10,719 bases of DNA, from contig JBHLLF010000073.1 of NCBI GenBank assembly GCA_048885865.1, positions 1 through 10,719 of the forward strand. Reading direction: 5' to 3'. The position numbers were made by a program, and so were the translations under genes. The notes under the pieces are model-generated. The model was not told where the DNA came from. It ran no database searches and saw only the letters and a list, made by a program, of their open reading frames with translations. This DNA comes from Candidatus Hermodarchaeota archaeon. GTDB lineage: Archaea > Asgardarchaeota > Thorarchaeia > Thorarchaeales > Thorarchaeaceae. This document shows positions 2,715 to 10,719 of this stretch, one piece after another (the stretch's first letter is position 1; every line of letters starts with the position of its first letter).

Positions 2715-3053
2715 ATGTTGCCTACAGAATGGGAAAGCAGTGTAAGAAAAAGCATAGAACAGTTCCCTCAATCACAGAGAGACAAGATACTGGCAGCTTG
2801 GCATGAATGGCTCCAGACAAACCCTGAATCACCTTATTACAAGAGTTGGTCAGAGTATTCAACCAGAATTGATGATCAAGAAGCGCTCTACACAGAAACG
2901 AGAGTCTATATCAAGAGAGTCACAAATGAGCTTCGAGATTTTGAAGTCCCATTAACCAACTGGCAGAAAATAGCAAAGGCATTAGCTGCCGTTGCGAGCG
3001 TATTTCTTGTAATCTTTCTCGCTCTATCAAGAGTGATGCGCGGGGCTGAGTGA
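2715..3053 (+). CDS. Hypothetical tail-anchored membrane protein (112 aa)
   Basis: AGGGGTG RBS at 2701-2707 before ATG 2715. Trp-rich soluble helical region, then one C-terminal hydrophobic helix (IAKALAAVASVFLVIFLALS, about 2970-3029) and a 7-residue tail RVMRGAE. No N-terminal signal peptide. Confidence 0.75.
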   Translation: MLPTEWESSVRKSIEQFPQSQRDKILAAWHEWLQTNPESPYYKSWSEYSTRIDDQEALYTETRVYIKRVTNELRDFEVPLTNWQKIAKALAAVASVFLVIFLALSRVMRGAE

Positions 3054-5753: not shown

Positions 5754-6914
5754 CTAGAACTCTGCCAAGCCAGCTGGCATTGGAATGGTTTCACCGCATC
5801 TTTGACAGATCCATTTTGCGTAGATATCAAATCCCACGGTCGCATCATAGGGATGTCGGACTTCATTGCCACATGAGTTGCATAGAATCTTAACGTATTC
5901 ACGCAATTCAAAGGAAACTCGCCAAGCATTTCTAGAATACTCTAGTAAACCTATTCGGTCATAATGCTTTGCGAGAGCAACCCAAGGAGTGGCAGAAGTA
6001 GGATCCACATGTGTCCATTCTATGAGGCAATTGACGAAGTCTTCATCACGCCCAATCATTGACAACGCATAACATAAACCACGCCAACCTTCCGGAGTGG
6101 ATCCAACTAGAGATTTCGCTCGTTCTAAACAATCATCGCTAGATGTCCTATCAAGCAAATGATTGTAAAGAATTGCTAGGCGCGACAATGCCTCCACATT
6201 CTCCGGATCTTGCTCCAAGACCGTCTGGAAACATTCCCTGGCACCCTCGTGTTCTCCTGACTGGAATCGCAATTCTCCTAAGAGTATCAAGGATCTATAG
6301 TCATCTGGCGCCAGCATATTCGCTCGTCCAACAAAAGGCGCCGCTTCATAAGACCGACCTAGAGTGAGCATGAGGAAAGCGTAGTTCGAGATTGCTGACA
6401 TGAACTCAGGTTCTTGGCGATGCATCGTCGCCCATTGTTCCGCGGCAGCTGTGAAGTCGCCCAACCTGTATAGCGAAAGCGCATAAATTGCTCGGATATC
6501 GAGGTCTTCAGAGAAAGTTTCACAGGCTGAAGCCAATATCTTGACAGTCCTGGCATATTCGCCTTTCTTGAGAAGAACCCAACCCAGATCGGCATAGGGC
6601 TCAGGGGTTTCTGGACCAAGTGAGATTGAACGACTTAGCTCGTTTTCAGCGTCGTCAAACCGTGCAAGTGCGCGGTAGGCGCGACCTAGAAACATTGAAA
6701 GGATGCAGTGTTCTTCAACAAGGTCCTCAGCTCTTTCAAGTACTTCAACTGCTTTATGTGGTTGCTCGGTCTGAACATAGGCGATGCCGAGATACATGAG
6801 AATATCCGCTTCATAATCAAGAGATTCATCAATCAATGGTTCCAGTATAGCGATGGCATCGGTTGGCCGCCCTTCCTCCAAGGCATCCAATGCGAGCTTT
6901 ATACTCTTATCCAT
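5754..6914 (-). CDS. Tetratricopeptide-repeat protein with a C-terminal CxxC...CxxC zinc ribbon
   Basis: Repeated TPR signatures (YLGIAY..., FLGRAY...A, DLGWVL...GEY, LLGEL...GE...A...F...L...P). C-terminal CNSC and CQRC. GGTGA RBS at 6925-6929 favours TTG 6917 or ATG 6914 as the start. Confidence 0.9.
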   Translation of the reverse strand: MDKSIKLALDALEEGRPTDAIAILEPLIDESLDYEADILMYLGIAYVQTEQPHKAVEVLERAEDLVEEHCILSMFLGRAYRALARFDDAENELSRSISLGPETPEPYADLGWVLLKKGEYARTVKILASACETFSEDLDIRAIYALSLYRLGDFTAAAEQWATMHRQEPEFMSAISNYAFLMLTLGRSYEAAPFVGRANMLAPDDYRSLILLGELRFQSGEHEGARECFQTVLEQDPENVEALSRLAILYNHLLDRTSSDDCLERAKSLVGSTPEGWRGLCYALSMIGRDEDFVNCLIEWTHVDPTSATPWVALAKHYDRIGLLEYSRNAWRVSFELREYVKILCNSCGNEVRHPYDATVGFDIYAKWICQRCGETIPMPAGLAEF

Positions 6915-6971
6915 CAATTCATGATCACCGATCAAGTTACGCAATTCGCTCTAACATCCGCAGTGGCTCAT

Positions 6972-6984
6972 ATCATATTATAAG
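6972..6984. promoter_or_regulatory. Putative bidirectional TATA element between the divergent TPR and PRMT-like genes
   Basis: ATATTATAAG contains the palindromic TTATAA (6978-6983), about 27 nt upstream of ATG 7010 (leaderless geometry), within a 95-nt intergenic region. Confidence 0.5.
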
Positions 6985-9227: not shown

Positions 9228-10088
9228 ATGGCATTCGAAGCGAAGCTTGAATTTGTCCCAATAGACCGGACTCAGAAGGAAGAAATAGAGAATTTGCTCC
9301 CGATTGAGATTGGCATGTTTGGGGGTAGTGGCAACTATGATCCTACAGTCATAGAGAACCCCATGGAGATCAAAGTGTTCACGCCCTATGGTGAGGCCTC
9401 GGACAACTATATTGTTGGAAAGGCAAAGGGTCGTTCCTTTGTGTTTCTAGCGCGACATGGTAGAGGTCACACGATTCCGCCTCATGCTATCAACTATCAG
9501 GCCAATATTTGGGGCCTCAAAGCTCTTGGCGTCACAAGGATCATCAGTCCTGCCGCTTGTGGGAGCCTGCAACCAGATAAGGTCAAACTTGGCGAATTCG
9601 TGATTGCAGACTCAATCTTTGATAGAACCTTCGGAAGAAGGAAAGACACATTCTTCGAGGGAGGGCCTATCGCACACCTTCCATTTGCGGAACCCTTCTG
9701 TCCCGAACTTCGCAAGGTTGCTGTAGATACTGCTGGCAAGCTGAAGTATAAGATTCACGACAAGGGAACATATGTATGCATCAATGGACCTAGATTCTCC
9801 ACTAGAGCCGAATCAATGTTCTATCACAATCAGGGCTGGGAGGTCATTGGAATGACCGCATACCCAGAAGCAGCCCTCGCGATGGAAGCAGGGATATGTT
9901 TTGTTAATGTGAGTATGCCGACTGATTATGATGTCCATGGAGAAGAAGTTGTCACACACGAGGCTGTATTGAAAACTATGGCCGATAACGTAGATCGCGT
10001 GAGGAAGCTTACTTTTGAGATGATTGACAATATCCCAAAGGATGCAGGTTGTGATTGCCAGACCAAAATGAAAGGCGGCCTCTTCTAA
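9228..10088 (+). CDS. mtnP: 5'-methylthioadenosine phosphorylase (PNP/MTAP family)
   Basis: GGSG, TPYG, FLARHGRGH..PPH.INYQAN, GPRFSTRAES, IGMT..PEA.LA.E, the TDYD 6-aminopurine specificity motif and a C-terminal CxC. GGAGGAGTG RBS, 4 nt after the PRTase stop (operon). Confidence 0.93.
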   Translation: MAFEAKLEFVPIDRTQKEEIENLLPIEIGMFGGSGNYDPTVIENPMEIKVFTPYGEASDNYIVGKAKGRSFVFLARHGRGHTIPPHAINYQANIWGLKALGVTRIISPAACGSLQPDKVKLGEFVIADSIFDRTFGRRKDTFFEGGPIAHLPFAEPFCPELRKVAVDTAGKLKYKIHDKGTYVCINGPRFSTRAESMFYHNQGWEVIGMTAYPEAALAMEAGICFVNVSMPTDYDVHGEEVVTHEAVLKTMADNVDRVRKLTFEMIDNIPKDAGCDCQTKMKGGLF

Positions 10089-10093
10089 GGGCA

Positions 10094-10137
10094 AGCATAA
10101 GGTGCGAGTCCTTTCAGACACGCACCCTTAGTCTGCT
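10094..10137 (-). terminator. Long intergenic stem-loop (GAAA tetraloop on the minus strand) between the convergent mtnP and microprotein genes
   Basis: The minus strand reads TAAGGGTGCGTGTCT-GAAA-GGACTCGCACCTTA: about 13 bp with one U-U mismatch and one bulge, extended by an outer AGCA/TGCT pair. Confidence 0.6.
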
Positions 10138-10167
10138 AGATACGAGAAAAGGAAGATAGTATGGATA

Positions 10168-10248
10168 CTACCAATCGTCATCATCTTCCCATTCATCGTC
10201 TTCCCAGTCCTCTTCGGCGTCGTACCAATCATCATCATCGAAGAACAC
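10168..10248 (-). CDS. 26-aa acidic, Trp-rich microprotein MFFDDDDWYDAEEDWEDDEWEDDDDW
   Basis: Perfect GAGGTGA RBS 5 nt before GTG 10248. T-rich TATA-like element at about 10281-10290. Mixed synonymous codons (GAT/GAC, GAA/GAG). A pyrimidine tract and hairpin follow the stop. Confidence 0.7.
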   Translation of the reverse strand: MFFDDDDWYDAEEDWEDDEWEDDDDW

Positions 10249-10357
10249 TGAGTTCACCTCTGCATTCGTATAGCATCTCATATGAAAAAAGGCTTGCTGG
10301 CAGACCCTACCGAAGCAGTGATAGCCCATGACTTGACATGAGAAATTGGGTGCCACT

Positions 10358-10719
10358 GTGTCAATCAGAGTAGCTGTTGGTCAGATGGATCCTATCATTG
10401 GCGACTTAGCAGGTAATCTGACCAAGATCAAGGAGATTCTTGATTCTTCATTCGACAACCAAGTCGATGTTCTTGTCCTTCCCGAACTAGTAAATTCCGG
10501 CTATGTTTTCAACAGTCGCGAAGAAGCATACGCTCTCTCAGAAGCAATTCCAGAGGGAGTTTTCTCAAGACATCTGTTGGAATGGTCGAATAGAGGAGGG
10601 CTAGTCGTCGCGGGACTATGCGAGAGAGCGGAGGGCGATCTCTACAACTCTGCGGCAATCTTTGGCGCCGGCAAGCATCTCACTACTTATCGCAAGATTC
10701 AGCTATTCGACAAAGAGAA
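10358..10719 (+). CDS. Carbon-nitrogen hydrolase (nitrilase superfamily), 5' part, truncated by the window end
   Basis: Manual translation from GTG 10358: MSIRVAVGQMDPIIGDLAGNLTKIKE...DVLVLPELVNSGY...GLCE...LYNSAAIF...YRKIQLFDKE. Catalytic Glu (LPEL) and Lys (YRK) are present. GGGTG RBS upstream. Not in the supplied track because there is no stop within the window. Confidence 0.93.
   Translation, partial: MSIRVAVGQMDPIIGDLAGNLTKIKEILDSSFDNQVDVLVLPELVNSGYVFNSREEAYALSEAIPEGVFSRHLLEWSNRGGLVVAGLCERAEGDLYNSAAIFGAGKHLTTYRKIQLFDKE

Follow-up and report, generated by a model that had tools for sequence, protein, structure and literature searches.

A conserved acidic-tryptophan microprotein gene of archaea and its putative role as a partner of basic nucleic-acid-binding proteins

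Introduction

DSS1/Sem1 and prothymosin-alpha, the latter a protein of about 110 aa devoid of aromatic residues, shield or release basic partners in eukaryotes. The acidic motif of WASP and cortactin, the Trp motifs of Dsl1 and the W-acidic kinesin motifs are parts of large eukaryotic proteins. The conserved regions of DSS1 consist of aromatic residues with acidic flanks, and this protein binds many basic surfaces (PMC8442969). Small acidic disordered hubs of the DSS1 kind are known as eukaryotic, and an archaeal counterpart would bear on their origin.

Here we analysed a stretch of 10,719 nucleotides from a Thorarchaeota genome, referred to as the window, which represents one entire contig. 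It carries a 26-codon micro-gene whose peptide shares with the WASP/cortactin, Dsl1 and kinesin motifs the D/E-flanked Trp words, and with Arp2/3-type regulators an acidic run that has Trp at or near its end. A sequence-only reading of the window had proposed a stand-alone linear-motif peptide regulating Asgard actin/Arp-like, coat-like or TPR proteins, with a nucleic-acid mimic or a metal-binding peptide as alternatives. Acidic-W microproteins apparently constitute an archaeal family without earlier description: a literature search that left most subscription papers outside its reach found no paper describing the family or containing five diagnostic motifs, and sequence searches of Pfam, NCBIfam and PDB revealed no family for the peptide. 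An exact-sequence look-up of 10 family peptides in a collection of 15 billion proteins found none of them, which length filters or start choice may explain.

Results and discussion

A 26-codon gene under purifying selection

The micro-gene is located on the minus strand of the window (10168..10248), starts with GTG at 10248 and ends with TAG at 10170-10168. The encoded 26 residues comprise 17 D/E, 4 W, 2 F and 1 Y and not a single K or R, with Trp at positions 8, 15, 20 and 26 (gaps of 6, 4 and 5) and D-D-W as the C-terminal end; the composition and terminal Trp read from the letters all hold. The same reading had placed the start within a 62-aa ORF, behind a perfect GAGGTGA ribosome-binding site, and had expected gene callers to miss the gene or choose a wrong start. 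Both the start and the site were confirmed: the Shine-Dalgarno (SD) sequence GAGGTGA occupies 10254..10260 (minus strand) with a 5-nt spacer to the GTG, and its GGTG core is kept in orthologs and paralogs. This spacing is indeed shared with another gene of the window, the PRT gene, which has GGTGA at the same 5 nt, and it fits the peak of 4–7 nt found for long ORFs of this genome. The in-frame stretch 5′ of the start varies from 3 to 44 codons in relatives; the 62-aa ORF is therefore not the gene, and the start given in the ORF track is wrong.

Sequence comparison among relatives confirmed the 26-codon ORF as a conserved protein-coding gene under purifying selection on the protein. Syntenic DNA is present in many relatives. 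Each of the 21 loci read has retained the SD, the open acidic-W frame and a start codon, which alternates between ATG, GTG and TTG behind the same SD; length differences amount to whole codons. For 8 same-genus orthologs of equal length, pS was 0.67 and pN 0.059 (ratio 0.09). Variable sites among the 25 codons compared fall at third positions in 14 cases, at first positions in 2 and at second positions in 4, and the ORF is 84–99% conserved versus 47–91% for its flanks. Only one other frame gave a low ratio (0.16), an antisense frame sharing third positions, in which no start signal was seen. The argument that synonymous variation reflects selection on the protein rather than a slipped repeat is thus borne out. 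D and E interchange among lineages while Trp is retained, which argues for charge and aromatic anchors as the conserved property.

It is barely conceivable that the locus encodes no protein and represents a C/D-box-like RNA or a slipped DNA repeat. Weak Rfam matches to C/D snoRNAs (E 0.18–0.99, far below gathering scores) speak for an RNA, but Asp codon runs generate C-box words by themselves, the window copy lacks a D box and orthologs have no fixed box positions; the pN/pS of 0.09 and the conserved SD, start and stop likewise argue against it.

Signals and neighbours in the window

A degenerate TATA-like box, putatively a promoter element, lies at 10283..10290 (minus strand). The claim that the micro-gene has a TATA-like element of its own holds with respect to position, as a T-rich box is found at -32..-25 from the SD in 70 family loci; the T-run at 10290-10283 is, however, a degenerate version of it. 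The pyrimidine tract and hairpin expected 3′ of the gene are both there. The tract (10144..10156, minus strand) may act as an archaeal terminator. The hairpin (10091..10136), situated between the convergent micro-gene and mtnP, folds better than shuffled sequences (z -2.8), but it favours neither strand clearly and may belong to mtnP instead; most orthologs carry a hairpin of differing sequence at the equivalent place, with mixed strand preference. A scan for bacterial promoters and terminators, which covers no archaeal promoters, gave no match.

The tail-to-tail neighbour is an mtnP-like nucleoside phosphorylase gene (9228..10088, plus strand, PF01048), syntenic across the family and probably a synteny marker rather than a partner of the micro-gene. 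Head-to-head with the micro-gene is a nitrilase-family gene (10346..10719, plus strand, PF00795), which is cut by the contig end and likely starts with GTG at 10358. Between the micro-gene and the nitrilase gene, a motif at 10306-10325 (minus strand) has stayed constant within the genus, in contrast to its diverged flanks; it is possibly the nitrilase promoter or a regulator site. Elsewhere, the window encodes a Ras-like small GTPase whose C-terminal tail is rich in lysine (9-665), an orphan coiled-coil-like protein (2045-2572) and a small orphan protein (about 2733-3053) that has a hydrophobic anchor at its C-terminus and scored below threshold as a SNARE (E 0.057).

Distribution in archaea and the actin proposal

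An HMM search with the peptide alignment missed even the genome of origin and was uninformative, so degenerate DNA patterns were used instead, run with reversed controls that gave 0 matches. The strict acidic-W pattern, which demands one exact spacing and hence provides lower bounds, matched, in the three archaeal groups sampled, 57 of 301 Asgard genomes, 55 of 101 genomes of Thermococci and 51 of 201 of Thermoproteota. Identical or near-identical peptides were found in Thorarchaeota. In 87 of the 90 loci read, the motif lies within a stop-to-stop frame of no more than 115 codons, and these frames are mostly SD-led, Trp-terminated ORFs of 20–70 residues. A bacterial control phylum matched in 5 of 101 genomes, all in stop-to-stop frames of at least 140 codons, and four viral matches fell in frames of 95–334 codons. 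Two records were set aside: an 'Iainarchaeum' match (L088), a Thermococcus-like peptide on a 2-kb contig that is probably misbinned, and a 'Promethearchaeota' record, which is a same-genus genome.

The archaeal family consists of peptides of 20–60 residues, about two thirds of them D/E. Trp is spaced along the chain and usually also forms the C-terminus, as in 52 of 71 Asgard peptides and in 28 of 30 loci each for Thermococci and Thermoproteota. In Thermococcales a Lys run is fused to the N-terminus, no separate Lys gene is found nearby and the neighbours vary. Their common design, the occurrence of mostly one locus per genome and the same neighbour in Asgard and Thermoproteota suggest that the Asgard, Thermoproteota and Thermococcales peptides share ancestry, which is unprovable at this low complexity. 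Beside the Thermococcus peptide gene and divergent from it, next to a CDC48-like gene, lies a gene for a conserved uncharacterised 250-aa protein (L089:3281-4033 and orthologs) without a Pfam match, whose nearest named cluster is DUF460 at a low score.

The stand-alone acidic-aromatic linear-motif design put forward for this peptide is supported by these data. That it serves, as proposed, as a multivalent ligand on which actin/Arp-like, coat-like or TPR proteins of Asgard dock appears very improbable. The DDW and DDEW ends do resemble eukaryotic docking motifs, and the host genome has one PF00022 actin match and many TPR proteins. Nevertheless, four single-contig Thermococci genomes carry a peptide of the same design and gave no PF00022 match in a search that did match bacterial control genomes, so that an actin role cannot be the general function. 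The Trp spacing ranges from gaps of 3 to more than 10 across the family; the recurring neighbours include no recognised actin or coat gene, and the TPR genes nearby are several unrelated paralogs. A secondary use in actin, coat or TPR binding confined to Asgard is possible. The W-Y/F-D-A-E-E stretch is not kept in relatives, and its interpretation as an FFAT-like motif was therefore discarded.

Linkage to a basic protein and a Lys-rich micro-gene

The genome carries exactly two stand-alone acidic-W copies, that of the window and one on contig C21. The second copy is head-to-head with the gene of a very basic 272-aa orphan protein (L031:5693-6508, minus strand) and lies just upstream of an adjoining 24-aa Lys-rich micro-gene (L031 about 6903-6977). 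The basic protein, found in 85 of 301 Asgard genomes, forms a family of about 100 clusters at 50% identity with net charges of +18 to +41. An acidic-W micro-ORF, nearly always with an SD, is present within 500 nt of its gene in 64 of 70 Asgard loci, a count that includes related and thus not independent genomes; contig ends truncate 3 of the remaining 6 loci. Depending on the family, the peptide gene either diverges from the basic gene or follows it in the same orientation, and the linkage survives this switch. It repeats at distant homologs of the basic protein, including those of Thermoproteota.

A Lys-rich micro-ORF is also present in 35 of the 64 linked loci, and it accompanies the acidic peptide even in Asgard families in which no basic protein of this kind was found. 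This micro-gene is conserved, encodes 17–31 aa rich in Lys, Ala and Pro, has its own SD and resembles a histone H1 tail; it stands beside the acidic peptide in several Asgard families and some Thermoproteota. In one Asgard family (L038, L042), acidic and Lys peptides are found near genes that are histone-like by sequence. A further conserved protein (L002:127-690 and orthologs), encoded about 1.3 kb from the micro-gene and without a Pfam match, has a long acidic N-terminal tail studded with aromatic residues.

Neither the tested Thermococci genomes nor several peptide-bearing Asgard families yielded the basic orphan, which thus cannot be the sole partner; the divergent neighbour in Thermococcus is unrelated to it. 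In this genome it matches no Pfam or NCBIfam model, and one distant homolog shows only a faint PaaX_M mark. The predicted structure (pLDDT 84) consists of two ferredoxin-like domains and a three-helix bundle. Best Foldseek matches were Rv0674 (probability 0.97) and the PaaX repressor (0.91), which share the order of ferredoxin-like domains followed by a helical bundle, but the likeness is weak (E 1e-3 to 5e-3, TM <0.3) and a wide fold search returned generic helical bundles only. We refer to the modelled fold as weakly PaaX/Cas2-like. Complex prediction for the basic protein with its 31-aa cognate peptide scored 0.00, a value uninformative either way.

Related genera show the order nitrilase, peptide, basic protein, peptide, mtnP, which suggests a relocation of the basic gene and the second peptide in this genus. 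The peptide found at the 3′ end of the basic gene in related genera apparently stayed behind in this move and corresponds to the window copy. By its flanks, the window copy is nearer to the first of these two peptides (one comparison, modest scores).

A putative nucleic-acid mimic or chaperone

We assign a probability of roughly 0.5 to the reading that the microprotein is a disordered, Trp-anchored polyanion whose targets are basic nucleic-acid-binding proteins, towards which it would act as nucleic-acid mimic or chaperone. This reading is the most likely one because the linked genes share a basic, probably nucleic-acid-binding character. The peptide would be unfolded and act in trans, its acidic runs would imitate the phosphate backbone, and its Trp residues might occupy hydrophobic or cation-pi pockets as bases do. 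By this means it could shield or release basic nucleic-acid-binding partners, in the first place the basic orphan and the Lys-rich peptide, and possibly also surfaces of the translation machinery such as ABCE1. The divergent layout would also fit a simpler arrangement, in which the basic protein merely regulates transcription of the micro-gene.

Of the alternatives named beforehand, the mimic or chaperone fits the gene context best; metal binding leaves the conserved Trp unexplained. A polyanion that buffers cations (Mg, Ca, K or polyamines) in the manner of polyphosphate, possibly condensing with the Lys-rich peptide, would agree with the share of about two thirds D/E across the family and with its pairing or fusion to a polycation. 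We nonetheless regard it as improbable, as it accounts neither for the retained internal and C-terminal Trp nor for the tie to one specific basic protein.

ABCE1 context in Thermoproteota

Of 28 informative Thermoproteota loci, 23 have ABCE1 shortly after the peptide gene in the same orientation, as the next gene in 20 and the next but one in 3; one ABCE1 was confirmed by Pfam (Fer4_RLI and ABC) and the others were recognised by their N-terminal Cys motif. These loci span Bathyarchaeia and other lineages. No such linkage was seen in this genome nor in the Thermococci and Asgard loci read.

The 23 loci would fit a cofactor that assists ABCE1 in ribosome recycling or translation and loosely resembles the N-terminus of eIF3j/Hcr1, which is acidic and carries Trp. 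We consider such a role unlikely, though it overlaps the mimic or chaperone reading: the linkage is confined as described, the co-location may mirror the clustering of highly expressed genes, and eIF3j has a helical domain that the peptide does not.

Acidic runs at the N-terminus destabilise the ribosome, a process termed intrinsic ribosome destabilization (PMC9718836), and translation is aborted at such N-termini in both bacteria and eukaryotes. A cis-acting leader peptide could in this way tune a downstream gene such as ABCE1, as its position in Thermoproteota would allow. That this is the function seems quite improbable, since the window copy is tail-to-tail with mtnP and under strong purifying selection despite having no same-strand downstream gene, and since downstream genes differ among Thermococci; the same-strand layout of a regulated gene is found in Thermoproteota members only.

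Lto1 is an adaptor for Fe-S maturation of ABCE1 that uses a C-terminal Trp (PMC4523923), and the targeting signal has been defined as C-terminal [LIM]-[DES]-[WF] (PMC10245660). The conserved C-terminal Trp and the adjacency to ABCE1 might point to a comparable adaptor, a highly improbable function here: the first position of the tripeptide is D/E and not [LIM], the deca-GX3 motif is missing, and the targeting complex has been described for eukaryotes.

Returning to the mimic or chaperone reading, its extension to a whole archaeal system is more tentative, and we put it forward as a possibility that is not the probable case. Thermococcales, Thermoproteota and Asgard would then have in common an ancient set of Trp-anchored polyanion and poly-lysine microproteins, split or fused, joined in Asgard by a basic protein of PaaX/Cas2 fold, that control access to nucleic acids or ribosomes by charge pairing, as an archaeal forerunner or analogue of DSS1 and prothymosin. 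With no family model or paper found for it, a gene retained in three major archaeal groups would be a conserved cellular component of archaea that has been overlooked. The Thermococcales range of the family and the actin test are new, and presence in Thermococcales provides genetically tractable hosts, unlike Thorarchaeota.

Comparison with known systems

Apart from their shared Trp words, Arp2/3-type regulators differ from the microprotein, which stands alone with no attached WH2/central or other actin-binding domain and persists without actin. The acidic Trp motif of the eIF3j/Hcr1 N-terminus and the C-terminal Trp of Lto1 resemble it as acidic-Trp elements tied to ABCE1, whereas the family peptide has no folded domain, no deca-GX3 and no terminal [LIM], and this genome has no ABCE1 link. 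With DSS1/Sem1 (PF05160) and CSNAP it shares small size, acidity and acid-flanked aromatic residues. DSS1/Sem1, however, which binds PCI subunits or ubiquitin, has about 70 aa compared to 26 aa, and no C-terminal helix segment follows the last Trp of the window peptide; the latter is moreover archaeal and belongs to a family whose genes are linked with that of a basic orphan or with ABCE1. The window peptide and 62 relatives gave no match to PF05160 or any other Pfam model at E up to 1, in a HMMER search that is weak on low complexity. Membership in DSS1/Sem1, the Arp2/3 activators, the Fe-S targeting tripeptide class and the C/D sRNAs failed. Prothymosin-alpha with linker histone H1 resembles the locus as a disordered polyanion combined with a Lys/Ala/Pro-rich polycation, with the difference that both partners here are micro-genes of 20–30 aa, sometimes fused. 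By analogy, the family may be DSS1- or prothymosin-like in its action while being a member of neither.
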